A program made the translations under genes and the position numbers. Of a stretch of 64,000 nucleotides of DNA, positions 5,975 through 45,582 are shown piece by piece; the first letter of the stretch is position 1; each line of letters opens with the position of its first letter. This DNA comes from an uncultured Gammaproteobacteria bacterium (lineage in GTDB: Bacteria > Patescibacteriota > Microgenomatia > CAYQLK01). The stretch lies in contig CAYOLO010000001.1 in assembly GCA_964404855.1 (NCBI GenBank), positions 222,894-286,893 on the forward strand, given 5' to 3'. A model generated the notes under the pieces. The model saw nothing but the letters and a program-made list of their open reading frames with translations. It was not told where the DNA came from and searched no databases.

Positions 5975-6039
5975 GTTATAGCCGTAAATTGTGCTAAAAT
6001 TCTTAGAATCGTTTTTGGGATACGGAATCAATTGTCTTT

Positions 6040-6650
6040 TCTTGACAATCCAAAACGTGTTTTTAGAGGAAAACACGAAAAGTCGAGGAGAGGTTTTTGG
6101 TTTGAGTTCCAACAACGAGCACATAACAATCGGAGAGGCACAGTTGACGAACATGTTGACGAGCACCGTGCATACCCTTGAGGAGTTGGCCGATATGGCT
6201 GATTCACCAAGGGCGGCGGATACCTATCGGGCATTCGCTAGTGCCGAGTGTCTCATGATGGTCGTAACCTCATCCAAGAATGTGGGCGAAGCCGCCGTCT
6301 GCGTTCCCCATTCCGGGCAGTCTGAAAGCCCCAGCGTGACTGTCGTGAAGCACCCCCGCTTCACCATCCCTGCGTCTGACTTGTTTCAGGTGATCTCGCC
6401 CGAAATGGCAAGCCGTCGCAGTCGCGAATCGCTGGCCATGAAGAGCACGCCGGTTAATCCGAAGTACTCGACGAACCATCAGGTCTTGCGGTTGCAACAG
6501 GAGAATGTTGCGAAGGTCGCAAGGCTTATGGCTGTTCTGACAGGGAAGCCGATCGAGGTCCGCTTCCAGGAAGCTGGTGGGCGCAACTTCCCTTACTTGG
6601 ACGAAGTGGTTCATCCTTAACCGGATTACGCGCCTTTAATTGGAACTGTG
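6040..6650 (+). other. GC-rich, ORF-poor island: a candidate large structured ncRNA or a foreign, pseudogenised fragment
   Basis: GC content rises sharply above both flanks. The only long frame (5991..6620) translates to a protein with no family resemblance and overlaps antisense ORFs rich in Arg, Pro and Gly. There are many local hairpins, for example a 7-bp stem at 6345-6364. A + strand intrinsic terminator follows. Confidence 0.25.
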
Positions 6651-6804: not shown

Positions 6805-6851
6805 GGTGGGTGGTAGGATTAATTTCTTGCCCCCACCTCTTTTTTTGTTTT
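6805..6851 (+). terminator. Rho-independent terminator candidate
   Basis: The stem GGTGGG (6805-6810) pairs with CCCACC (6832-6837), followed by TCTTTTTTTGTTTT. It lies between the GC-rich island and the convergent rimK-like gene. Confidence 0.4.
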
Positions 6852-17118: not shown

Positions 17119-17410
17119 GGTTATATTTTTCTTTTCGAGAAACAAGGTTTTTAAACTATTTTTTTAATTACATTCTTTTTTCAATCTACTTTCTTGGACG
17201 CAATTTTGGATGTTTGCTTTTTGCTAAAAGCGAACTCTGCGCAACCAAAGTTGCTTCGACCCGAGAGATTTCTTTCTTTCACTTTTTGCTCGCTCTTTTG
17301 CTAAAACAAAATCTGTGCCCACTCAAAAAAAGAGATCCAAGAAAACAGATTGAGGGATATGGGAGACAGAAAGAGATCAACAAAAGGAAAGTTTGGAGTA
17401 TTAAAAGATA

Positions 17411-17440
17411 AAAAAGAGCCCTCCTTTTTAGGGGAGGGCG
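17411..17440 (-). terminator. Intrinsic terminator: CCCTCC/GGAGGG hairpin plus U-tract on the minus strand (family member 1 of 3)
   Basis: GCCCTCC (17418-17424) pairs with GGGAGGGC, preceded on the + strand by an A-run, which is a T-run on the minus strand. It sits directly downstream of the 17457..17681 minus gene. Confidence 0.6.
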
Positions 17441-17456
17441 TGGGGTGTGAGGAGTG

Positions 17457-17681
17457 TTATTCCTCTTCGTCTTCTTTTTTGATCTTGACGATTCCCAGAA
17501 GGGAGATCAAGAAGAGGACGCCGTTGATGACGGCCGCAGTCACGAAGACGTAGCCGAACAGGCTCCAGAGATCTTGAGAGCTGGTTTCCGCTGCACTGTC
17601 CTGCGCAATGTCGATGAGAAAGAACGCAAGTACAGTGAGGGCCGTGTTGACGGCCAAAATTACGGGAACGATGTATTTCAA
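17457..17681 (-). CDS. Small two-TM membrane protein with an acidic C-terminus, GC-rich relative to its surroundings
   Basis: The 74-aa ORF has two hydrophobic helices and a higher GC than its neighbours, with the conserved terminator directly downstream. Confidence 0.45.
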   Translation of the reverse strand: MKYIVPVILAVNTALTVLAFFLIDIAQDSAAETSSQDLWSLFGYVFVTAAVINGVLFLISLLGIVKIKKEDEEE

Positions 17682-17828
17682 AGGACTTTACTCTCCTGCG
17701 GGGATAGGCGAGTGTTGCAGATGAAAAGTATTTCTACAACAGTACTATTATACCATATTTAGGCCTATAGTTCAATAATTTATTGTAATGTTTTTGGTTA
17801 AAAAACCAAAATTGTTTAGAATAGAGTA

Positions 17829-23802: not shown

Positions 23803-23843
23803 AAGTCAAAAAAAGCCCCTAAGTCTGTGAAGACTAAAGGGGC
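23803..23843 (-). terminator. Intrinsic terminator for the adenylosuccinate-lyase (purB) gene
   Basis: The + strand reads A-run, then GCCCCTaAGTCT-GTGA-AGACTaaAGGGGC. On the minus strand this is a hairpin followed by TTTTTTT. Confidence 0.55.
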
Positions 23844-23863
23844 TAAGGTAAGGCGGAGACAGC

Positions 23864-25330
23864 TTACAGGTTTAGCTGTTTTCTCCAGTTGGCGACGATT
23901 GTGCCTGTTTTGGTTTTGGCGATGCCAGTGTAGAGCGTTGGGTCTTGCAGGACGAGGCGTTGCTTCGGGCTCATTCTGGCGATGTACGAAGCAAGTTCTG
24001 GGTCTTGGTTAAGAATGTCTTCCATTCCTTTGCCTTCACGAATCGCTTGCTGTGTTAGTTTGCGGACTTTTTCGTGCGCGTCTGGGTGACCGAGGAAGGC
24101 GAGGATGATCTGAAGTGGTTCGGCCAAAATCAGACCTTTTTGTAGGTTGAGATTGGCTGACATGTTGCCTTGGTCGACTTCGAGCTTGGCGATGATACGG
24201 CTGAGTCTCTTGGAGCTGACAACGAGGTAATTGACGCTTTCGCCGTAGGTTCGACCCGAGGCAGAGTTGGTCAAATCTCTTTGGTGCTCGCTGAGCTGGT
24301 CTAGGAAAACCGTGACAAGACGGCCAATGCTGGTTTTCCAGAGACTTTTCGCGTTCTCGAGGCCGATAGGGTTTCGTTTTTGCGGCATTATCGAAGAGCC
24401 GACCTGTTCTTCTTCGAATGGTTCTCCAACTTCGCCGATTTCGGTCCGTTGCAGGTGCCTGAGGCTGTCTGAAAGATCAGCAAGGATTCCGTGTGCGATG
24501 GTTATTTCGCACATCAGACGAATCATTGGCTCGGGCGGAGCGATTTGGGTCGAGTGCTCGGCGGGTTTAAGGCCGAGAATGAAGAGGATTTCACGTTCGA
24601 ATTCCTCAGGGTCATCGAAAAAGAGTGAGGAGGCATTGTAGGCTCCAACTGAGCCTGAGAACTTGCCTTCGAGTTCTTTGGCGAGACTTTCGAGCTTTTC
24701 AATCGATTGGCCAAGCCTAACGACGAAGCCTGCGACGAAGAATCCGAAGGTGAGGGGCGAAGCGTGTTGTCCGTGAGTTCGGCCGACCTCGACTGTTTCT
24801 GCTTCGCGAGAAGCAAGTTCAATCAAAAATCGCTCGAGTTTTTTTAGTTCAGGAATGACGACTTTTATTGTCACATCCCTAAAGCGCATGGCCGTGGCGG
24901 TGTCTCTGATGTCAAAAGAAGTAGCCGGCGTGTGAACGAACGGCTTATTTTTTTTGCTCAGACGGTTTCTAATCAGGTTGACGAGGGCACGAATATCGTG
25001 CTTAATTCGGTTTTCTTCCTGATAGATTTGGTGGGTTGTGATCTGTTTGGCGGCGCGTTCAACTTGCTCAACCGCAGAAGCTGGAGCCATGCCTCGTCTG
25101 TTGAGCACAGTGACGAGAGCAAGTTCAACCTGCAGAAGGTAGCCAGTGAAGGCGTTCTCGGAGAGGTATTTGGCAACATCGGAATCCCAGTACCGATAGT
25201 CGGCGGGGGAGATGCTGTCGTAGACATCACGAGTAAGAAAGCGCGGAAGTCTGACCATCCTTTTGTCCTTGTAACGTGCGAAATTTCCAAGCTCGCTTAT
25301 TAGCGAACTATAGGTTGGCAAGGTTAGCAT
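23864..25330 (-). CDS. purB: Adenylosuccinate lyase family protein (fumarate lyase superfamily), compositionally GC-rich
   Basis: It has the 'GSSIMPQKRNPI' fumarate-lyase signature and is 488 aa. GC and codon usage (GCC, CTC, CCG, ACG) differ clearly from the surroundings. Confidence 0.8.
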   Translation of the reverse strand: MLTLPTYSSLISELGNFARYKDKRMVRLPRFLTRDVYDSISPADYRYWDSDVAKYLSENAFTGYLLQVELALVTVLNRRGMAPASAVEQVERAAKQITTHQIYQEENRIKHDIRALVNLIRNRLSKKNKPFVHTPATSFDIRDTATAMRFRDVTIKVVIPELKKLERFLIELASREAETVEVGRTHGQHASPLTFGFFVAGFVVRLGQSIEKLESLAKELEGKFSGSVGAYNASSLFFDDPEEFEREILFILGLKPAEHSTQIAPPEPMIRLMCEITIAHGILADLSDSLRHLQRTEIGEVGEPFEEEQVGSSIMPQKRNPIGLENAKSLWKTSIGRLVTVFLDQLSEHQRDLTNSASGRTYGESVNYLVVSSKRLSRIIAKLEVDQGNMSANLNLQKGLILAEPLQIILAFLGHPDAHEKVRKLTQQAIREGKGMEDILNQDPELASYIARMSPKQRLVLQDPTLYTGIAKTKTGTIVANWRKQLNL

Positions 25331-30360: not shown

Positions 30361-32685
30361 ATGGATTTGGACTTAGCTAGTTTGATTAGCACACTACTAA
30401 CAATAATTGGAGTGGTTTTGATATTGGGTGTAACCAGTGCTGTTGGTGCGTATTTTGGGGCGATTAAGTATAGGAACAAAGATAGGGAGGAAAGATCATT
30501 AAATTTTGTTCTGCTTTCTGTAGCTGTACCAAGGGATAACGAGGTCAAAATCGATGCGATTGAGCAGATGTTTTCTTCACTTTCGGCTTTATCAGTGCCA
30601 GAAGGTTTTTTGAGTTTTCTTAAACCAAAGGATCATATTTCGTTCGAGATTGTGGCGTTACCTGGAGATATTAGATTCTATGTTTCTACGCCTAAAGAAT
30701 ATAAAGATTTATTGGTGAAGCAGATTTATGCTACTTATCCTGGAACGATGGTTCAGGAGGTCGAGGAATACAATATTTTTAATGAAACGGGGGAAGTAAG
30801 TTATGGGGCAATGAAGCTAGCTAAGGCGAATTATTTTCCGATTAAAACTTATAAAGAGCTGGTAACAGATCCTTTGTCATCACTAACATCACCTTTGGCT
30901 TCGTTGCAGGAGGGTGAGGGGGCTTGTATTCAAATATTGGTTTCTGGGGCTGATTCTAAGTGGAAAGATGCAGCCAAAGCGTTTGTGGCCAAGCAGAAAC
31001 ATGTATCGACAGACGATAAAGGTCCAAAGAGTAGTGGAGACCCAAGACAGATTGAGGCAGTTGAGTCCAAGGTGTCAAAATTGGGCTTGGAAACTTTAGT
31101 AAGAATTGTTGTCTCTAGTAATACAAAAGAAGGTTCAAAAATTCACTTCGACAATATTAAGAATGCTTTTTCACAATTTAGCTCAGACTTTAATAAGTTT
31201 TCTTCTGAGAAAGTAGGAAATAAACGAGCCTTTATGGAAGATTTTATATACAGGTATATGCCTGTAAGAGGTCGAGGGTCGATATTAAATATTGAGGAAC
31301 TTGCGAGTTTGTTCCATTTTCCAAATAAAAGTGTAGAGACACCGAATATTCACTGGCTGAATTTTAAGCGGGCTCCAACTAGTTCGAATATGGCGACGGA
31401 AGGATTACTTTTAGGCAAAAGTGTTTTTAGAGATACTGAGCGAAATGTTTACTTGGGCGATGATGATAGGAGAAGACATGTATATATTATTGGACGAACA
31501 GGAACAGGTAAAACGGAGCTACTTAAATCGATGATTTTGCAGGATATTAAGGCTGGAAAAGGTATTTGTTTTATTGATCCGCATGGTGACGCTGTTGAGG
31601 ATTTGTTAACAAAAATTCCAAAAGAAAGAGCCGAAGATGTTATATATTTTGACCCTTCTGACATGGAAAGGCCGATGGGGCTGAATATCATCGAAGCACA
31701 CACTGAAGAGCAAAAGGGAATGATTATTTCGAACTTTATTGGGCTAATGTACAAGCTTTATGATCCTCACCATCAAGGAATTGTGGGTCCGAGGCTTGAA
31801 CATGCGATTAGAAATTCAATGTTGACGGTAATGAGCATGCCAGGTGCTACATTAATTGAAACATATCGAGCTGTAACAGATTTAAATTATGTAAAAGAGA
31901 TTTTGCCAAAAGTAACTGATCCAGTAGTAAGAAGGTATTGGACGGACGAGATAGCCAATACAAACGAATATCACAGGTCGGAGACATTGGGATATTTTGC
32001 ATCAAAATTCGGCAGATTTGTGACTGATAGAATGATTAGAAACATTATTGGCCAGTCCGAGAGTGCTTTTGATATTCGTGAGGTAATGGATAATCAAAAA
32101 ATATTACTAATTAATCTTTCTAAAGGGAAGATTACTCCAGAAAATTCACAATTTTTGGGACTTATTTTGGTACCAAAAATACTAACTGCAGCGATGAGCA
32201 GGCAAGATATGCCGGAGGCTGATAGAAAAGACTTTTATTTGTATGTAGATGAGTTTCAGAATTTTGCGACTGAAACATTTGCTGAAATTTTGTCGGAGGC
32301 GAGAAAATATAGGTTGAACTTGATTGTCGCTAACCAGTTTATTAATCAGATGGAAGAGAATGTGAAAAATGCGGTGTTTGGTAACGTGGGTACCTTAATA
32401 TCTTTTAGAGTTGGTACTGAAGATGCGAATGTGTTAACCCATGAGTTTAAGGGGTTATTTAATGAGTTTGATTTGACCAATGTGGCGAGGTTTCAGACAT
32501 ATGTTCGGACGATTTACCGTAATGAACCACTTGAGCCGTTTTCGATGGATACTACAAGAGATTTAAGTAAGGATGTAAAAAATAACGAATTAGCTGAAAT
32601 TATTAGACAGTTGTCGAGACAGAAATTTGGCAAGGATGTTACAGTGCTCGAGCCTGAGATTGTGCAGAGAGCAAAGCTTGGTTAA
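30361..32685 (+). CDS. TM-anchored P-loop ATPase of the VirB4/TraC / HerA-FtsK superfamily (T4SS-like)
   Basis: It has an N-terminal TM helix, a long middle domain, Walker A 'GRTGTGKTE' and a Walker B-like 'FYLYVDEFQNFATE'. At 774 aa it is comparable in size to Gram-positive VirB4 homologues. Confidence 0.5.
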   Translation: MDLDLASLISTLLTIIGVVLILGVTSAVGAYFGAIKYRNKDREERSLNFVLLSVAVPRDNEVKIDAIEQMFSSLSALSVPEGFLSFLKPKDHISFEIVALPGDIRFYVSTPKEYKDLLVKQIYATYPGTMVQEVEEYNIFNETGEVSYGAMKLAKANYFPIKTYKELVTDPLSSLTSPLASLQEGEGACIQILVSGADSKWKDAAKAFVAKQKHVSTDDKGPKSSGDPRQIEAVESKVSKLGLETLVRIVVSSNTKEGSKIHFDNIKNAFSQFSSDFNKFSSEKVGNKRAFMEDFIYRYMPVRGRGSILNIEELASLFHFPNKSVETPNIHWLNFKRAPTSSNMATEGLLLGKSVFRDTERNVYLGDDDRRRHVYIIGRTGTGKTELLKSMILQDIKAGKGICFIDPHGDAVEDLLTKIPKERAEDVIYFDPSDMERPMGLNIIEAHTEEQKGMIISNFIGLMYKLYDPHHQGIVGPRLEHAIRNSMLTVMSMPGATLIETYRAVTDLNYVKEILPKVTDPVVRRYWTDEIANTNEYHRSETLGYFASKFGRFVTDRMIRNIIGQSESAFDIREVMDNQKILLINLSKGKITPENSQFLGLILVPKILTAAMSRQDMPEADRKDFYLYVDEFQNFATETFAEILSEARKYRLNLIVANQFINQMEENVKNAVFGNVGTLISFRVGTEDANVLTHEFKGLFNEFDLTNVARFQTYVRTIYRNEPLEPFSMDTTRDLSKDVKNNELAEIIRQLSRQKFGKDVTVLEPEIVQRAKLG

Positions 32686-32704
32686 TAAAAGTAAGGAAAA
32701 AATG

Positions 32705-32778
32705 TGGGCGCGCTTGGACTTGAACCAAGGACATCGACCTTATAAGAGTCGCGCTCTAACCAACTGAGCTACGCGCCC
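32705..32778 (-). tRNA. tRNA-Ile, anticodon UAU
   Basis: The reverse complement GGGCGCGTAGCTCAGTTGGTTAGAGCGCGACTCTTATAAGGTCGATGTCCTTGGTTCAAGTCCAAGCGCGCCCA folds as a cloverleaf with a 7-bp acceptor and a 5-bp T-stem. The anticodon loop is CTTATAA. CCA is not encoded. Confidence 0.8.
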
Positions 32779-32849
32779 ATGACTTCCTTCTGTTTGGGTA
32801 AAGGAGATTTTACTTCAAAAATCTGCCTGTGACAAAGATGTAAAATATA

Positions 32850-33041
32850 TTGGAACTAATAAATATGCTGAAACGTTACACAATTTTTGCAATGATTGGC
32901 TTGGCGGGAATCGGTGGATTGTTTTTGATTTTTTACCTTAGCTGGTTTTGGAGACTGTTTTTGGTACCAATTATGGTAATTGTTGGGTACGGGCTGATTT
33001 CGTCAGAGCTAGATAAAACAAGAGGGAAGAAGGATAAGTAA
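32850..33041 (+). CDS. Small membrane protein (2 TM), hypothetical
   Basis: A 63-aa hydrophobic ORF, which might be spurious. Confidence 0.3.
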   Translation: MELINMLKRYTIFAMIGLAGIGGLFLIFYLSWFWRLFLVPIMVIVGYGLISSELDKTRGKKDK

Positions 33042-33093
33042 GTACCTTTACTCCATAAAATAACAGAAAATACAGAAGTATATGAGCTTAAGT

Positions 33094-33990
33094 TTAAAGC
33101 TCTTCGAGTTTAACTTTTTCCGAATTTTTCTTTGGTTCGATTAAACCAAGGTAGCGTTCAGTTGTTGATAGTCTTTTGTGTCCAGCAAGTTTGGAGATAA
33201 GTACAACAGATGTTCCTCTTGAAAGGTGGTGGTGTACCCAAGTGTGGCGTAAGTCGTTGACCTTGGCGTGGGCGATACCGGCTTTTTTGAAGTAACGATC
33301 GATTGCTGTACGGATGTTGCGAATAAGAAGAGGTTTGTTGTTTTTGGTAACAAACAAGTTGTCATCAGGTTTGGCTTCTTTGCGTTCTTTAAGATAGCGT
33401 TTAACTGCTTCTTCGGCAGCAGTATTTAGTGGAATTGTACGCTCAGTGTGGCCTTCAAATGGGCGAATATAGATTCTGCCTTCTTTTTTGCCTTCGGAAA
33501 GAAAAATATCTTCGATTCTGATTCTGGCGAGTTCTCCGATACGCATACCGGTTTGAAGCAAAAGTTCAATTACAGCAGAAATTCTTGCATCACTGCGAGC
33601 AGCATCACGAAGAGCGCGATACTCAAGCGGCGTGAGAACTCGAGGCTGTTTGGTTTCGAATTTGGGGTGTGCGACCATTGCCGAAGGGTCATCAGTGATT
33701 ATTTCTTCTATTTTTAGAAAACGGAAGAATGTTTTAGTTGAATTAAGCTTTCTTGAAACGCTTTTTGGAGTGTATCCTTCTTTGCCGAGCTTGGCTAAAA
33801 AGGCATTAATATCAGCTGTTGAGACTTCGTGAACATGGTTTTTTTGCAGTTCTTGTAGGAATGCTACAAGCTGCTCAATATCTTTACCGTAAGCTAGAAC
33901 CGTAGCGGATGCTCGGTTTTTACCTCGAAGGTGGTCAATAAATGTTTGATGGGCATTTTTAAGGGCAATTGGATCTGATTTTGCGGCCAT
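33094..33990 (-). CDS. Tyrosine site-specific recombinase (XerC/XerD-size phage-integrase family)
   Basis: The C-terminal catalytic region '…LRHTWVHHHLSRGTSVVLISKLAGHKRLSTTERY' carries the R, H-x-x-R and Y residues. At 298 aa it is XerC/D-like in size. It lies between tRNA loci. Confidence 0.8.
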   Translation of the reverse strand: MAAKSDPIALKNAHQTFIDHLRGKNRASATVLAYGKDIEQLVAFLQELQKNHVHEVSTADINAFLAKLGKEGYTPKSVSRKLNSTKTFFRFLKIEEIITDDPSAMVAHPKFETKQPRVLTPLEYRALRDAARSDARISAVIELLLQTGMRIGELARIRIEDIFLSEGKKEGRIYIRPFEGHTERTIPLNTAAEEAVKRYLKERKEAKPDDNLFVTKNNKPLLIRNIRTAIDRYFKKAGIAHAKVNDLRHTWVHHHLSRGTSVVLISKLAGHKRLSTTERYLGLIEPKKNSEKVKLEEL

Positions 33991-34124
33991 AATTAATTTT
34001 TAAGTAATAATCAAATTTCAGGGTAAATTAGCTTTGATTGCCCTGGGGCATTATGAACTATGGGATAGTGTAGCTTATGTATAACAGTACTGTCAAGTAT
34101 GATTTTGGTTAATAATTTTTACGT

Positions 34125-34493
34125 TTGGTGCTTAAAAGATACAATGGAGATATGAGATCAAAATGGGTAATACAGTTAATAATGATAGCGTTTGGTTTGT
34201 GGCTAATAATTGTTTTTACTAGGCAGTTTTTAGAGTTTTTTGATAGTGGGGATAGAATTGAACAGACTCAAACAGAAATGCAAAAACTTGAGGCTGAAAA
34301 TGCCAAATTGAAGGAAGAAAAGGCTTATAGGCAGACTAATTTTTTTATTGAAAAAGAGGCTAGAGAGAAGCTGGGGTATGGCATTGAAGGAGAATCAACG
34401 GTGATTTTTAAACAAGAGCAGGCAACACCTGAGGCTCAGGTAAAAACTGAAGAGATTCCTAATTGGAAAAAGTGGCTTGATTTCTTGTTTTAA
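34125..34493 (+). CDS. FtsB/DivIC-like septum formation initiator (TM plus coiled coil)
   Basis: It has a single TM, a coiled coil (KLEAENAKLKEEK) and 'EKEAREKLGYGIEGE', which matches the septum-formation-initiator family motif. Confidence 0.6.
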   Translation: MVLKRYNGDMRSKWVIQLIMIAFGLWLIIVFTRQFLEFFDSGDRIEQTQTEMQKLEAENAKLKEEKAYRQTNFFIEKEAREKLGYGIEGESTVIFKQEQATPEAQVKTEEIPNWKKWLDFLF

Positions 34494-34550
34494 TTGACGG
34501 TTTTAGCTTCAAGTGATAGAATTCTGCGACGGATAGAATAACTTTAATAT

Positions 34551-34622
34551 AGCGGTGTGGTGTACCGGGAACACGCCAGGCTCATAATCTGGAGATACGT
34601 AGTTCGACTCTACGCGCCGCAA
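34551..34622 (+). tRNA. tRNA with CAU anticodon (Met/Ile2-lysidine class), with an A1·A72 acceptor mismatch
   Basis: The cloverleaf has acceptor AGCGGTG / CGCCGCA, D-stem GTGT/ACAC, anticodon stem CCAGG/TCTGG with loop CTCATAA, and T-arm CGTAG-TTCGACT-CTACG. U8, A14, U33 and A58 are present. Confidence 0.6.
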
Positions 34623-34635
34623 CAAGTAAGGAAAA

Positions 34636-34663
34636 ACCGACTCTAAAAGGGTCGGTTTTTTTT
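34636..34663 (+). terminator. Intrinsic terminator downstream of the tRNA
   Basis: ACCGAC…GTCGGT hairpin followed by TTTTTTTT. Confidence 0.55.
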
Positions 34664-34678
34664 GTTAAGATTTAGAAA

Positions 34679-34891
34679 ATGGGTGTAGAAAAAACTAAAA
34701 TTTGTCCGAAATGTAAGTCAAAAATGGAAGAGGGTGTTGTGCCTGACAGATCTGAAGATTGGCAAAAATATAATTTACAGTGGGGTAAGAAAGTGACGAG
34801 GTTGGGTTTTGGGTTAAAAGATACGACTGATTTAAGAGCTTTTAAGTGTGAAATTTGCGGTTATATTGAGCTATACACTAAAAAGGTTTAA
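34679..34891 (+). CDS. Small zinc-ribbon protein
   Basis: A 70-aa ORF with CPKC…CEIC Cys pairs. Confidence 0.45.
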   Translation: MGVEKTKICPKCKSKMEEGVVPDRSEDWQKYNLQWGKKVTRLGFGLKDTTDLRAFKCEICGYIELYTKKV

Positions 34892-34892
34892 G

Positions 34893-34965
34893 TGGCGACG
34901 GTTGGGCTCGAACCAACGACCGCGGGTTTATGAATCCCGTGCTCTACCAACTGAGCTACGCCGCC
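34893..34965 (-). tRNA. tRNA with CAU anticodon (elongator Met or Ile2 class; G1-C72 paired)
   Basis: The reverse complement GGCGGCGTAGCTCAGTTGGTAGAGCACGGGATTCATAAACCCGCGGTCGTTGGTTCGAGCCCAACCGTCGCCA forms a cloverleaf with T-stem GTTGG/CCAAC and anticodon loop TTCATAA. Confidence 0.75.
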
Positions 34966-36053: not shown

Positions 36054-36303
36054 CTCCTGATATTTTAAGAGTTTTTTATTTTAAATACATATTTTTTTCA
36101 ATTCGCTTACTCGCACACTTGAATCCCCTTGCGACGACTCTCATTCATTTGTGTTTGATCGAAGGATGGGGTTGTCAAAGGACGGTTTCTCCTTGAAGGT
36201 GGAATTAACTGAGATGGATTTTAACATAAAAAGTTAACTATGAGCTTGCTATTAAAAAACTTGAGCTGATATACTTGGCGCTAGTTTTAACAAGATAAAT
36301 TTT

Positions 36304-42502: not shown

Positions 42503-42703
42503 TAACCTTTTAAGTTAAAGAGATTATAGGTTCTCGCTCAAATTCGCAAAATAATTTGAGTCCCCCAAAATTTTAAGTGAGTGCTCGTTTTCTGGTGAAA
42601 ACTACACCTCGGTTTTGATTCTCAAAAACTCAGTTTGAGCTACAAGCCTTCTTTAATGTGAAACACGCAAAAAAGGAACACTCCTAACTCTCGCAAACTC
42701 AAG

Positions 42704-42731
42704 AAAAAACCCTCCTTTTGAGGGGAGGGTT
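42704..42731 (-). terminator. Intrinsic terminator: CCCTCC/GGAGGG hairpin family member 2
   Basis: The + strand reads AAAAAACCCTCCTTTTGAGGGGAGGGTT, directly downstream of the 42749..42997 minus gene. Confidence 0.6.
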
Positions 42732-42748: not shown

Positions 42749-42997
42749 TTAGACGGCTCGCGGTGGAAGGTCGATGAGGCCGATGAGGCAGGCCATTCCG
42801 AAGACCGAAAGAAGTATTGCTACTGCTCCGGTTCCGAATACGCCAAATGCCTCGTTGCGACCGAGAGAGAAAAACTCGATGGCTTGATGAGTTGGTTGAC
42901 TGTATGTCGGACGACTTTGTTCTTGGTGTGTACCGAGGGACATTAGTCCAAAGATAGCTCCAAAAACGAGGAAGAAGATTCCGATCGGGATTTCCAC
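42749..42997 (-). CDS. Small two-TM membrane protein, GC-rich
   Basis: An 82-aa ORF with the same architecture as the 17457..17681 gene and elevated GC. Confidence 0.45.
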   Translation of the reverse strand: MEIPIGIFFLVFGAIFGLMSLGTHQEQSRPTYSQPTHQAIEFFSLGRNEAFGVFGTGAVAILLSVFGMACLIGLIDLPPRAV

Positions 42998-43027: not shown

Positions 43028-43510
43028 TTAGGCTTCGCTTGTGCGCATTGCCAGCTTGACTAGCAGGTAAACCCCCGAAAGGATAAGTCCTGCGTATAGC
43101 ATGAACGGATCTTCGTCCATGCTACTGATCATTGCGCCGAGGGTGGCAATTGCGACCATTCCTAAGATGTCTCCAAGGGAGATTCTCCAGAAAAGCCTAA
43201 TCGAGTCCATTTCGTAAGCGTTCACTATTACACCAAGCAGAAGCAAGGCGAAAAGCGGAACGGCGAGAATACAGAGAACGAGGGCGACTTCTTCGATTGC
43301 CAGAAAGTCCTTAAAGAAGTACCACGGCATGGCCGAAGCAAAGACTTTGAGGATAATTTCTGCGATTGAGGGGAAGCGTCTTGGGCACTGTTCGTCTGCT
43401 TTGCGAAACAGCTCTTGGATGTTGTTCCTAAAGAGAAAGATTAGGGCAGCTAAGGAGAGGATGACCCCTCCAAGGTTTTGGATGACCCAGAGAAACACGT
43501 AATAGGGCAA
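43028..43510 (-). CDS. Membrane protein (4-5 TM), hypothetical, GC-rich
   Basis: A 160-aa ORF, co-directional with the small membrane gene and separated from it by 30 nt. Confidence 0.5.
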   Translation of the reverse strand: MPYYVFLWVIQNLGGVILSLAALIFLFRNNIQELFRKADEQCPRRFPSIAEIILKVFASAMPWYFFKDFLAIEEVALVLCILAVPLFALLLLGVIVNAYEMDSIRLFWRISLGDILGMVAIATLGAMISSMDEDPFMLYAGLILSGVYLLVKLAMRTSEA

Positions 43511-43675
43511 CGCTCATTCCTTCTTTTTTGCGCGAGTTAAAGTACAGATCTTACCCACCTATTATATCACATTTTAAGCCTATAGTCAACTGATTTGAAG
43601 CTAAATTTTTGAATTTTAGAAAAGTTTTTATTCTGCGGGAATTGTGCGATAATATGAGTATAATTATAGGTAATT

Positions 43676-44740
43676 ATGATTCAATATCAGCCGAAATTTA
43701 CGATTAATAATCAGATTCTTACTAATATCGCCAATATTGTGGCGGCTAAAGAATTTATTGAAGATGCACCACTTATTCCTGCATGGGAAGCTAAGTTTAG
43801 GCGTGAGGCTATGGAGCGAACTGTTCATCATGGAACGCATTTGGAAGGCAATAAGTTGAATATGGAACAGGCCAAAGAAGTGCTCGATGGAAGGCAGATT
43901 TTGGCAAAACAGGATGATATTCAAGACATTATTAACTATCGGGAGGTTCTTAGTTATATCGATAGTGTGGCTAAAAAGGAAGGAAAATTGACTGAGGAAG
44001 TATTACTTAAAATTCATAGTTTAACGGTTGATAAGTTGTTGCCTGACGACCAAAAAGGGAAGTATCGTACTTTGCAGGTTTATGTGACGAACAGTCGAAC
44101 TGGAGAGGTGTCTTTTACACCACCAAAACCTGAAGAGGTGGCTGGTGAAATTAGATATTTTTTGGATTGGCTTAATTCAAAGGAATCGGAAAATATTCAT
44201 CCGACTCTAAAAGCCGGTGTGGTTCACTATAATTTGGCCAGAATTCATCCGTTTGTTGATGGTAATGGGAGAACTTCTAGGGCGTGTGCAACATTAGTTT
44301 TGTTCTTGTCTGGCTATGATATTAAAAAGTTTTTTGCGTTGGAAGAGTATTACGATATGGATGCAGCTAGTTACTACCAAGCTTTACAGGAAACAAGTAA
44401 TCAGATAGTTGTGAAAGAATCTGAGCGTGATTTGACTGGGTTTTTGGAATATTTTACGAAAGGTCTGGCGGTAGAGCTTATGCGTGTACGAGAAAGAGTT
44501 CAGCATCTCTCTAGTGATTTGAGGCTCAAAAAACGTGTGGGACAGTTGGCTCTGACTGAGAGACAGGCAAAGATTGTGGAATATATTCAATCGTATGGAA
44601 AAATTACAAACAGAGAGTGGAGATCTTTGTTGCCTGACTATTCTGACGATACGGTTTTGAGGGATTTGAAGGATTTGATTAAGAAAAAAATCATTAAGAA
44701 AAAAGGAATGACAAAGTCGGCTGCTTACGTGATGAAATAA
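43676..44740 (+). CDS. Fic-family protein (AMPylation fold) with C-terminal winged-helix domain
   Basis: It has the canonical Fic motif 'HPFVDGNGRTSRA' and a C-terminal HTH-like region. Confidence 0.85.
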   Translation: MIQYQPKFTINNQILTNIANIVAAKEFIEDAPLIPAWEAKFRREAMERTVHHGTHLEGNKLNMEQAKEVLDGRQILAKQDDIQDIINYREVLSYIDSVAKKEGKLTEEVLLKIHSLTVDKLLPDDQKGKYRTLQVYVTNSRTGEVSFTPPKPEEVAGEIRYFLDWLNSKESENIHPTLKAGVVHYNLARIHPFVDGNGRTSRACATLVLFLSGYDIKKFFALEEYYDMDAASYYQALQETSNQIVVKESERDLTGFLEYFTKGLAVELMRVRERVQHLSSDLRLKKRVGQLALTERQAKIVEYIQSYGKITNREWRSLLPDYSDDTVLRDLKDLIKKKIIKKKGMTKSAAYVMK

Positions 44741-44770
44741 AAAAAAGACCCTCCTTTTTAGGGGAGGGTG
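44741..44770 (-). terminator. Intrinsic terminator: CCCTCC/GGAGGG hairpin family member 3, between convergent genes
   Basis: The + strand reads AAAAAAGACCCTCCTTTTTAGGGGAGGGTG. The minus-strand reading gives a hairpin plus T-run. It is 5 nt after the fic stop. Confidence 0.6.
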
Positions 44771-44791: not shown

Positions 44792-45373
44792 CTAGCTTGG
44801 TGGGGCCAGATGTTCGATGAGGGCGGTGAACTCGCGAATTTGGCACTGAACCAGACCCGCTCTAAGGTGTTTGGCTAGGGCGTTTACAATTGCAGTGTCG
44901 AACCTTTGGGTGAGTTCGATTTTGGCGACATTACCAGTTGTGGTAATAGAAACCAGCCAATGATCGCCAGCGTTGCCGTGTTTGGTGAGTTCGATTCTCA
45001 GCTCAACTTGGTCAGTGTCAGCCTCTTGATATACAAGAGGGTTTGGTTCAGATAACTTGGCTGTGGTTTTGACGCTCCCTACTGAACCGATTGTTTTTAG
45101 GCCTTCGGTTATGGCAGGCAAAATGGTTTGGGTCAGGAGAATGAAGTGCGGATTTTGAGGGTCTGAGATTCGATGTTTTTCGGCTGTTCCGATCGAAGCA
45201 TCAGTGATATTGCCACAGAAGGCAAAGTGGTTGAGCGAATCGGTTTCGAATCTGACGTTTACACTTGTTCGGAGCATTGTGTTAGCGGTGACCACCTTTT
45301 TGATTAAAGTGCTGTTTTGGGCTTTGCGGATTGAGATTGTAAATATTTTGAGATTCAAATGCAAACAAAACAC
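44792..45373 (-). CDS. Hypothetical protein, GC-rich (start likely at an internal Met)
   Basis: A 193-aa ORF with higher GC than its neighbours and no recognised motif. Confidence 0.4.
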   Translation of the reverse strand: MFCLHLNLKIFTISIRKAQNSTLIKKVVTANTMLRTSVNVRFETDSLNHFAFCGNITDASIGTAEKHRISDPQNPHFILLTQTILPAITEGLKTIGSVGSVKTTAKLSEPNPLVYQEADTDQVELRIELTKHGNAGDHWLVSITTTGNVAKIELTQRFDTAIVNALAKHLRAGLVQCQIREFTALIEHLAPPS

Positions 45374-45582
45374 TTAAAAAGGTAAAAGAGTTACTCGTCA
45401 AAACTTTTCCAAAAACTGCCTCCGGCATTTTTGTCATCAGTTTTGGCTACGTCCTGCGCTTTAGGAGGCCTAAAGCTATAGAATAATCATATTTTATAAG
45501 ACTGTTTTTTTTAGCTTTTTGGATTAAGTGCTTGAATTAACAGTATTAACTGCGAGGTATAGATTTGAGTTAAAATTGTAGT

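Follow-up and report, generated by a model that had tools for sequence, protein, structure and literature searches.

The 64,000-nt stretch of DNA analyzed here (contig CAYOLO010000001.1 of assembly GCA_964404855.1, positions 222,894 to 286,893; referred to below as the window) carries the same short hairpin, with a CCCTCC/GGAGGG stem, at three places, each time behind a minus-strand gene that is richer in G+C than most of the window. The question is what this hairpin is and why it keeps such company. A preliminary description of the sequence had proposed a cohort of co-acquired cassettes or a mobile 3' module. We favor another answer and consider it likely: the hairpins would be unidirectional Rho-independent terminators of short, independently promoted minus-strand units, and the signal appears to be typical of the clade.

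Anatomy of the three hairpins and their genes

The pattern CCCTCC-N(3-9)-GGAGGG has exactly three matches in the 64 kb (17419-17438, 42710-42729, and 44749-44768), in one orientation, and is found not once in 100 dinucleotide-preserving shuffles, which bears out the threefold stem of the preliminary description. The longer motif CCCTCCTTTT[T/G]AGGGGAGGG also has three copies in the window, with 0 expected by chance; two of the hairpins are identical 20-mers and the third differs by one loop base.

17405-17439, minus strand: putative terminator 1, G-CCCTCC-CCTAAAAA-GGAGGG-C then TCTTTTTTATC; -14.7 kcal/mol, z -4.3; 18 nt past the stop codon
42698-42731, minus strand: putative terminator 2, AA-CCCTCC-CCTCAAAA-GGAGGG-TT then TTTTCTTGAG; -14.6 kcal/mol; 19 nt past the stop codon
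44738-44769, minus strand: putative terminator 3, A-CCCTCC-CCTAAAAA-GGAGGG-T then CTTTTTTTT; -12.2 kcal/mol; 23 nt past the stop codon

Read along the minus strand, the three share the form (G/A)CCCTCC-CCTNAAAA-GGAGGG(C/T), followed by TCTTTTTT, TTTTTTCTT, or CTTTTTTTT. The stems are 7 to 8 bp long with 5 to 6 G-C pairs, and the loops measure 8 nt. Directly 3' of each stem lies a U-tract (minus-strand tails TCTTTTTTAT, TTTTTTCTTG, and CTTTTTTTTA, with 6 to 8 U within 9 nt), and on the plus strand an A-run is accordingly present at the 5' side of every copy, as had been noted before. The conserved tail of the form GTG(R)GGTG that had also been described matches sites 1 and 3 but not site 2; among about 30 related copies this stretch is simply G/T-rich and variable, save for its first C, which extends the stem. 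The distances to the stop codons of the adjoining minus-strand open reading frames (17457-17681, 42749-42997, and 44792-45373) are short, and so each copy does stand directly 3' of a minus-strand gene; in about 40 related copies the distance is 8 to 44 nt.

The hairpins thus show the sequence features of a canonical Rho-independent terminator, namely, a stable, G+C-rich stem-loop, a 3' U-tract, a position within tens of nucleotides after a stop codon on the same strand, directionality, and a folding energy of about -12 to -15 kcal/mol. The RNA folds have z-scores of -2.5 to -4.3, and none of 200 shuffles was as stable. They are the top terminator-like sites of the window and its sole sites under a strict scan (a perfect stem of at least 6 pairs, at least 4 G-C pairs, and at least 6 T in 9). 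Terminator-like sites in general are no commoner than in shuffled sequence (17, 12, and 21 found, compared to 11.7, 13.4, and 13.5 expected), which indicates that most window genes have no intrinsic terminator. The RNA made from the minus strand would be 5'-(G)CCCUCC-CCUNAAAA-GGAGGG(C)-3' followed by 6 to 8 U within 9 nt, and, judging from the canonical anatomy, the hairpin and the weak rU:dA hybrid behind it would together release the transcript.

In the plus direction the RNA hairpin has a stronger local fold (-18 to -21 kcal/mol), with extra G-U pairs and a tetraloop, and no U-tract. A T-run on the plus-strand side, as a bidirectional terminator would have, is absent at all three sites. Since there is no U-tract in this reading, the hairpin should not stop plus-strand transcription; it may shield the 3' ends of convergent plus-strand transcripts from degradation. 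A true bidirectional terminator of another sequence, CTCCCC...GGGGAG, lies just upstream of the window (stretch L208, about 2760-2810). Site 1 has a further hairpin of its own:

17449-17480, plus strand: hairpin GAGGAGTGTTATTCCTC with a T-run, overlapping the stop and last codons of the 74-residue protein gene

Its structure is kept while its sequence changes in relatives (GAGGAGGATTACTCCTCCTC in L079 and L101, GGAAGTCTTTTAGACTTCC in L207; L-numbers denote the related loci and contig stretches used for comparison). It is probably a terminator against plus-strand read-through, and site 1 therefore looks like two convergent terminators placed back to back. At site 3 the A-run abuts the stop codon of a convergent plus-strand gene, 43676-44740, whose product, with a Fic motif HPFVDGNGRTSR, is encoded toward the 161-residue gene of that site.

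The genes attached to the hairpins have to be seen against a strongly asymmetric background. The window has a GC content of 38.6% and a GC skew of +0.28 throughout. The plus strand, which is the G-rich one, carries 53 of the 63 genes (84%), with a mean GC content of 0.378, a GC content at third codon positions (GC3) of 0.316, and third positions that are 24.5% G and 7.4% C. Minus-strand genes of normal GC content mirror this (24.6% C and 8% G), so the asymmetry belongs to the DNA strand and not to the direction of transcription. The four genes of the hairpin units, with GC contents of 0.47 to 0.51 and GC3 of 0.49 to 0.68, stand clearly above this background, as the preliminary description had it.

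17457-17681, minus strand: gene for a 74-residue protein with two transmembrane segments; GC 0.50, GC3 0.68; TTG start and GGAG Shine-Dalgarno sequence
17747-17775, minus strand: predicted promoter of the 74-residue gene; TTGAAC, 17-nt spacer TATAGGCCTAAATATGG, TATAAT
42749-42997, minus strand: gene for an 82-residue protein with two transmembrane segments; GC 0.51; distal in a two-gene unit with the 160-residue gene
43028-43510, minus strand: gene for a 160-residue polytopic membrane protein; GC 0.49, GC3 0.60; same unit as 42749-42997
43561-43589, minus strand: predicted promoter of the two-gene unit; TTGACT, 17-nt spacer ATAGGCTTAAAATGTGA, TATAAT; 11 of 12 consensus positions, with TG
44792-45277, minus strand: gene for a 161-residue soluble, lineage-restricted protein; GC 0.47, GC3 0.50; fast-evolving
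45336-45365, minus strand: promoter-like sequence upstream of the 161-residue gene; TTTGCA, 18-nt spacer, TACAAT; also in L060 and L084

Nucleotide substitutions against orthologues are concentrated at third codon positions, which argues that these open reading frames are real genes. The third-position share is 21/29, 13/15, 11/14, and 32/53 for the 74-residue gene in four comparisons, and 28/41 and 72/123 for the 160- and 161-residue genes, both against L060; it is 13/25 for the 82-residue gene, whose L060 orthologue is 84% identical, and the coding evidence is weaker there. The third open reading frame probably encodes 161 residues from the ATG at 45277 and not 193, because its orthologues are predicted to have 161 to 162. 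In public gene calls for this locus (L001-L003), plus-strand open reading frames (17350-17553 and 17454-17762) run through the hairpin and antisense to the 74-residue gene, which is omitted.

Few homologues exist. Among 5.8e9 proteins, the 74-residue protein has 4 homologous clusters and the 161-residue protein 4 to 5, all without domains, and Pfam searches with the four hairpin-unit proteins returned no domain. The 161-residue protein is 72% and 42% identical to homologues in loci where neighboring genes reach 95 to 97% and about 80%, respectively. The 74- and 82-residue proteins had been called similar small two-transmembrane proteins, and each does have two hydrophobic segments; the likeness ends with topology, since BLASTP of one against the other gave no alignment at E<=100.

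The promoters at 17747-17775 and 43561-43589 belong to one spacer family, which is common to the promoters of hairpin units in relatives. A fixed promoter pattern with CTATAG had no match in the window, so a looser spacer-based pattern was required, and that pattern had no third match in the window beyond these two sites. With a promoter, a Shine-Dalgarno sequence, and a terminator of their own, the units would be separately expressed. From the window and its relatives, the standard unit would comprise an optional repeat (element A, below), a near-consensus sigma-70 promoter with a conserved spacer, a Shine-Dalgarno sequence, a GC-rich open reading frame, and the CCCTCC terminator with a UUUUCUUG tail. 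The products would be lineage-restricted proteins, many of them small membrane proteins, always encoded on the C-rich strand. The units of the window would form antisense islands within long co-directional plus-strand arrays that appear to have no intrinsic terminators, and their terminators may there insulate essential plus-strand genes from antisense transcription.

How selective the hairpin is can be judged from 72 kb of unselected sequence, consisting of the window and 8.3 kb upstream (L208). The motif is found on 3 of the 4 GC-rich minus-strand units and on 0 of the 6 minus-strand units of normal GC content (Fisher p ~0.03), the latter having other hairpins or no canonical terminator. The fourth GC-rich minus-strand gene, a purB-like gene at 23864-25330, is followed by a different signal:

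23807-23844, minus strand: putative intrinsic terminator, AGCCCCT...AGGGGCT with T6

Most genes therefore do not use this hairpin as a general terminator, and the difference in GC content holds up, two points on which the preliminary description had staked its proposal.

The hairpin in related and unrelated genomes

The gene content of the window is that of a reduced cellular genome (SUF, split transketolase, FtsH, a TrpRS/TyrRS-type synthetase, RecF, and Fpg), and we tentatively place the lineage as Patescibacteria/Saccharibacteria-like. Contigs of the closest metagenome-assembled genomes (MAGs) show up to 98% protein identity with the window and keep its gene order. The labels of these related contigs conflict (Candidatus Saccharibacteria, Candidatus Paceibacterota, uncultured Gammaproteobacteria, and Pseudomonadales), and some of them must be wrong.

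An exact 20-mer scan of one genome per species gave 125 copies on 102 stretches. About 40 of the exact copies fall in some eight related MAGs, where they share one context (..AAGAAAAAG-hairpin-C..). In the related loci, the CCCTCC/GGAGGG stem accounts for 35 of 47 strong hairpin-plus-T sites, mostly with the tail (A/T)TTTTCTTG. It thus appears to be the commonest strong terminator in related MAGs, in a sample that is biased upward, because the loci were gathered by means of the motif itself. This selection inflates the share of terminators, whereas the GC content and strand of the attached genes are unaffected by it. Every one of the 32 assignable hairpin genes in relatives is GC-rich (mean GC 0.509, GC3 0.554), compared to 0.412 and 0.375 for 193 other open reading frames in these loci (Mann-Whitney p ~1e-11 and ~1e-10, respectively). 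All 32 also lie on the C-rich DNA strand, as called from the third codon positions of neighboring genes.

The pairing of the stem is kept by compensatory changes, as in GCCTCC/GGAGGC in L205 and CTCTCC/GGAGAG in L041. At orthologous positions, the site 1 hairpin is found in L007, L079, L101, L205, L207, and L086, and two metagenome contigs contribute loop variants there; a metagenome scan with the neighboring Pyr_redox protein returned 3 loci, which are useful but too few for a population view. The site 2 hairpin is kept in L016, L041, and relatives of the L086 type, including cases with a different gene upstream. Site 3 has an orthologous copy in L060, and in L084 a copy follows a homologous gene at the syntenic position. 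In a more distant Patescibacteria MAG (PAT3; L031 and L042), the hairpin follows genes with a GC content of 0.59 to 0.60 in loci of 0.38.

Beyond these relatives, matches to the 20-mer occur sporadically in Bacteroidota, Leptospira, Elusimicrobia, Chloroflexota, Alphaproteobacteria, and others. The viral contigs (IMG/VR, L109-L204), when scanned, gave 96 stretches with one match each, and an A-run precedes 89 of the 96 copies. Most of these represent one orthologous terminator of an unrelated low-GC phage family; this abundant phage group (GC about 0.33) has a single orthologous site, AAAAAGAAA-hairpin-TYGGTCYAAGGATACTATCC. Unrelated phyla and phages thus seem to have evolved the exact 20-mer as a terminator separately, and the identity of the three window copies alone does not demand mobility.

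Two other associations of the 20-mer were seen in passing. In Saprospiraceae MAGs (L012, L018, L020, L024, L035, L036, L046, L057, L062, L073, L095, L106, and others) it is fused to a conserved G-tract tail, GTCGGGGGTGGGGTTGA, in a distinct repeat family with dozens of copies, frequently as inverted pairs 20 to 40 nt apart; the four G-runs of the tail give it the potential to form a G-quadruplex. Tails resembling GGGG(T/A)GGGG also stand behind single copies in Sphingomonadales, Bacteroidales, and Ktedonobacterales.

Both the loop (CCUNAAAA) and the tail (UUUUCUUG) are more strongly conserved than a stem-loop would call for. The hairpin could therefore be a specific recognition site besides or instead of a terminator, either a pair of uptake sequences of the kind known from Neisseria and Haemophilus or the target of an RNA-binding regulator. 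The 3' arm and loop make a Shine-Dalgarno-like AAAAGGAGG that is sequestered by an anti-Shine-Dalgarno-like CCUCC, and Saccharibacteria are naturally competent according to two reports (PMC10187176, PMC10633639). Precedent exists in terminators that bear uptake signal sequences (USS) or DNA uptake sequences (DUS): these number at least 1000 per genome and also occur outside hairpins, and an exact DUS is part of about 55% of high-confidence Neisseria terminators (Kingsford, Ayanbule & Salzberg 2007, PMC1852404). As in Neisseria and the Pasteurellaceae, a large share of the terminators here is built on one short sequence. Unlike DUS and USS, which occur in both orientations, all copies here have a single orientation relative to the gene, and the 8-mer halves are confined to the hairpins at about 1 per 20 kb. 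An uptake-like motif was accordingly rejected: CCCTCCTT, GGGGAGGG, and AAGGAGGG are found only in the three hairpins, with one extra GGGGAGGG, in 64 kb. The 20-mer acts as a terminator in unrelated phyla and phages, and no candidate binding protein is known to us or was identified. We regard a recognition function as very unlikely and return to the hairpins as terminators.

Age of the units and the case for mobility

Several observations speak for the proposal that the hairpin is a mobile 3' module, or that the cassettes were co-acquired recently and came with a terminator and a foreign GC content of their own. Near-identical stretches of 20 to 35 nt stand behind non-homologous genes, and these genes are GC-rich and encode orphan proteins. 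Units are also present or absent among close relatives: L205 has an extra unit beside site 1, with the hairpin GGCCTCC-TTTTTGG-GGAGGCC; L016 is without the 82-residue gene, and its hairpin directly follows the 160-residue homologue. In L041 and L081, a GC-rich gene for a protein of 188 or 213 residues stands with a variant hairpin (AGCTCTCC-CCTCAAAA-GGAGAGCT) between trpS-like and tRNA-binding genes, and in the window (36054-36303) this unit has been lost:

36166-36303, minus strand: decayed unit; promoter, Shine-Dalgarno sequence, and first 13 nt of the open reading frame left, gene and hairpin deleted in the window

The C-terminus of the 188/213-residue protein looks DUF1653-like by eye, although no domain search was made. 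Islands upstream of rpoB in several MAGs likewise differ by whole units, and the islands of relatives are mosaics with insertions and deletions bounded near hairpins.

Yet a recent origin is contradicted by synteny, which the preliminary description had itself suggested as a check. Orthologues of all three window units stand at matching syntenic positions in several other species, and there is thus no recent cohort. The third-position divergence of the unit genes is, in addition, no higher than that of the genes flanking them, with one exception that is matched by the neighboring pth gene.

82-residue gene, window against L060: 0.16 (flanking genes 0.14-0.43)
160-residue gene, window against L060: 0.17 (flanking genes 0.14-0.43)
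161-residue gene, window against L060: 0.44 (flanking genes 0.14-0.43)
74-residue gene, window against L007: 0.28 (flanking genes 0.32-0.52)

After this divergence, the GC3 of unit-gene orthologues is still 0.5 to 0.72, so the GC-richness appears to be maintained and carries no trace of recent import. The hairpin genes also bear the resident strand asymmetry, with GC3 skews of -0.3 to -0.56, compared to 0.07 for a foreign-looking gene at 5991-6620. That gene is the only GC-rich gene on the G-rich plus strand (GC 0.52, GC3 0.63) and has no Pfam hit; lacking the strand skew as well, it is probably a recent acquisition. A terminator-like GGTGGG...CCCACC with a T-run lies at 6805-6847 on the plus strand, about 190 nt downstream of it.

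In the material covered, traces of a mobile element were likewise not seen. No terminal inverted repeats or target-site duplications were seen around the hairpin copies examined, where the conserved stretch is only about 35 nt; no transposase domain was found among the scanned window proteins, in a test for repetitive extragenic palindromes (REP) and miniature inverted-repeat transposable elements (MITEs) that covered the 64 kb and fragments. The sole resolvable unit boundary, at 36166-36303, is an imprecise deletion and not an excision at the hairpin. No match was found by tblastn of the 161-residue protein against phages or by blastn of the site 2 unit against plasmids, and no viral contig carries the hairpin in multiple copies. 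From synteny, divergence, and the resident skew we reject recent co-acquisition, and a mobile or imported origin in general seems to us improbable. What stands of the earlier proposal is that the units are compositionally distinct, self-contained cassettes, GC-rich in 32 of 32 cases and subject to gain and loss. We conclude that they are old syntenic residents that are occasionally gained or lost, with the hairpin as their terminator.

Known systems of cassettes and palindromes resemble these units in part. Integron cassettes are also small, mostly orphan open reading frames of deviant composition with a trailing imperfect palindrome, and they are gained and lost. Unlike them, the units here have their own promoters and, in the window, are dispersed at syntenic sites, without an array beside intI and attI. 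The hairpin was rejected as an attC site, being 20 to 24 nt long (conserved unit about 35 nt) as opposed to 57 to 141 nt and having no R''/R' cores (RYYYAAC/GTTRRRY). The REP sequences and bacterial interspersed mosaic elements of enterobacteria are likewise short palindromes at 3' ends, can stabilize upstream mRNA, and form mosaics with other modules, as the hairpin does with elements A to D and the promoter. They differ in that the hairpin has no conserved GTAG head, a canonical U-tract, a far lower copy number, and no REP-associated tyrosine transposase (RAYT) in sight.

The only recombinase in the window is a XerC/D-type integrase (33094-33990, minus strand) with generic Phage_integrase and SAM-like N-terminal domains only. 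It lies in a region, 30361-34965, that also includes a gene for a TraG/VirD4-like coupling protein (30361-32685), a tRNA-Ile with a UAU anticodon (32704-32778, minus strand), and two tRNA-Met genes. A tRNA-Ile with this anticodon is uncommon. The region may be what is left of an integrative element, or plain dif/Xer housekeeping.

Strand-bound orientation of the units is shared by a dispersed repeat, element A, which is about 105 nt long and can be enlarged by an insertion of about 60 nt. Copies follow many of the hairpins, and many of the stereotyped promoters have one upstream or overlapping them. A covariance model (R1) built from 7 copies and searched against 168 kb (the related loci and the window) gave 27 matches at E<=0.01. 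All lie on the strand of their locus's terminators, and the window has two.

42513-42672, minus strand: element A, long form with the ~60-nt insertion, between terminator 2 and the stop codon of a convergent recF-like gene
45374-45477, minus strand: element A, directly upstream of the 161-residue gene promoter; model R1 52 bits, E 3e-9; orthologues in L060 and L084

Further copies were seen in L039, L096, L007, L085, L030, L026, L081, L101, and others. The copy at site 2 is absent from L041, whose proteins are about 95% identical to those of the window.

The ends of element A pair in a long imperfect stem. In the alignment, 92.8% of cells are paired, compared to 68% in shuffles; 26 of 28 pairs show compensatory double changes; and the covariation score is 0.51, compared to 0.16 in shuffles and 0.05 to 0.09 in slid controls, figures to be read with the reservation that an alignment fitted to the model favors structure. 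The many G-U pairs favor an RNA in this orientation, and a copy between the tuf stop codon and the tuf terminator in two MAGs indicates that it is transcribed there; copies also occur upstream of rpoB. Rfam at gathering thresholds found 3 tRNAs only in the whole window, and a permissive search of both intergenic regions gave noise only, without a match to element A. The element could be a MITE-like repeat with structure at the RNA level or a new small or cis-acting RNA. Transcribed MITE-like structured repeats such as ERIC/IRU, Correia/NEMIS, and bcr1 of Bacillus offer the closest comparison: they too are multicopy intergenic sequences of about 100 to 160 nt with an end-paired stem, found near terminators and promoters and, as with element A at tuf, in a 3' untranslated region. 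Element A is unlike them in having no target-site duplication or cognate transposase identified and in its single orientation relative to the strand asymmetry.

A second dispersed noncoding repeat, element B (..GGATCTCTTTTT..AGCGGGCA..TTTTGCTTTAGCAAAAGAGCGAGCAAAAAG), occurs at 17130-17400 on the minus strand and in L079, L051, L053, L085, and L010; in the window it takes up the space that separates terminator 1 from the convergent Pyr_redox gene. The intergenic regions of the clade appear as mosaics of such reused modules, including elements A to D, the promoter, and a 'AGTTACTCGCGC...CACTACGTCCTG' module.

Transposons that move as single-stranded DNA (ssDNA) have a replication-linked orientation bias. 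The confinement of 32 of 32 hairpin genes to the C-rich strand, and of 27 of 27 element A matches to the terminator strand, recalls that bias and could mean that the hairpins are ends or recognition structures of a system of the IS200/IS605 or REP-RAYT kind and not terminators. Of the window proteins that were scanned, none showed a Y1 transposase, TnpB, or RAYT domain. The fixed distance of 18 to 23 nt after the stop codon, with a U-tract, is terminator geometry; the G-U pairs of element A favor a structure in RNA over one in DNA; and, in contrast to the paired ends of a transposon, the CCCTCC hairpin has no sequence relationship to the first hairpin of element A (TTTCGGGTTTCCCGAAA). An ssDNA system is, in our judgment, extremely unlikely.

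Why the genes are GC-rich, and what the units mean

The third positions of the hairpin genes are raised in both letters, with C at 0.40 and G at 0.16, compared to 0.25 and 0.08 in normal genes of the same strand. One explanation would leave the link between the hairpin and GC content incidental: the hairpin may be the default or optimal terminator of the lineage, used for instance by strongly expressed monocistronic genes that are optimized for C-ending codons. Near-consensus promoters, good Shine-Dalgarno sequences, and a strong preference for NNC codons (TTC 65%, ATC 62%, AAC 76%, and TAC 78%) would fit, as would the reuse of the 20-mer as a terminator in many unrelated genomes. But all G- and C-ending codons are raised, including CTG, CCG, TCG, and AAG, beyond the tRNA-matched NNC codons, and minus-strand operons of normal GC content have other hairpins or none.

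Contig CAYGIG010000004.1 of a related MAG (1-24000; L039, L098, and L030) provides a direct comparison. Hairpin units are interleaved there and co-oriented with rpoB, rpoC, rpsL, rpsG, fusA, tuf, rpsJ, and rplC; the core genes have GC3 of 0.34 to 0.48, compared to 0.56 to 0.67 for the interleaved hairpin genes, and tuf has a different terminator. The lower GC3 of tuf and the ribosomal-protein genes rules out translational selection as the sole cause of the high GC3. We therefore think it rather unlikely that the hairpin is simply a default terminator. The candidates left are a GC-biased, gene-specific process, such as recombination-linked biased gene conversion, and selection on the mRNA.

The same contig rules out, as general rules, the idea that units always lie antisense to their neighbors and an explanation by avoidance of polarity. 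The invariant feature of the hairpin units is the C-rich DNA strand and not an antisense position. The rpoBC-tuf cluster of this contig has more C than G at third positions, with a GC3 skew of -0.1 to -0.4, a hint that the rpoBC-tuf-ribosomal-protein cluster stands on the C-rich strand, opposite to about 84% of the window genes, which is unexpected for such genes. If this is true, the extreme strand asymmetry of the lineage is not the usual leading/lagging pattern.

Several points weigh against reading the hairpins as terminators of insulated units. Termination is predicted from sequence alone, and a loop of 8 nt on a stem of 6 to 8 bp is at the weak end of canonical terminators. Unlike in usual Rho-independent terminators, the loop and the UUUUCUUG tail are near-invariant across non-homologous genes, beyond the needs of termination, which hints at shared descent or a second function, and use is limited to one compositional and strand class. 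The argument from insulation fails in CAYGIG010000004, the estimate of 35 in 47 comes from loci selected by the motif, and other minus-strand units are without the motif or have CTCCCC...GGGGAG or AGCCCCT...AGGGGCT hairpins.

As a signal, the hairpin belongs to the well-known intrinsic terminators, of which it is a version specific to this clade. What stands out is the strict tie of one terminator, and often of one promoter, to maintained, GC-rich, lineage-restricted genes on the C-rich strand. A bolder reading, which we offer as a long shot, is that this Saccharibacteria-like clade keeps part of its accessory genome as standardized C-rich-strand units (element A, stereotyped promoter, GC-rich orphan open reading frame, and CCCTCC terminator). 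Their shared ends, together with a gene-specific GC-biased process (for example, biased gene conversion through frequent recombination) in a naturally competent host, might then allow swapping, loss, and regain, a homology-based analogue of the cassette pool of integrons.

In practice, the hairpin together with the promoter that goes with it points to genuine small genes on the "wrong" strand that automatic gene callers miss or replace by spurious plus-strand open reading frames. The terminator and promoter, as a natively used pair, may serve as genetic parts for Saccharibacteria and other Patescibacteria. Lastly, neither recent transfer nor simple codon optimization accounts for a class of genes with GC3 of 0.5 to 0.7 against a genomic GC3 of about 0.3, and such a maintained class would allow biased gene conversion or selection at the mRNA level to be tested in ultra-small genomes.

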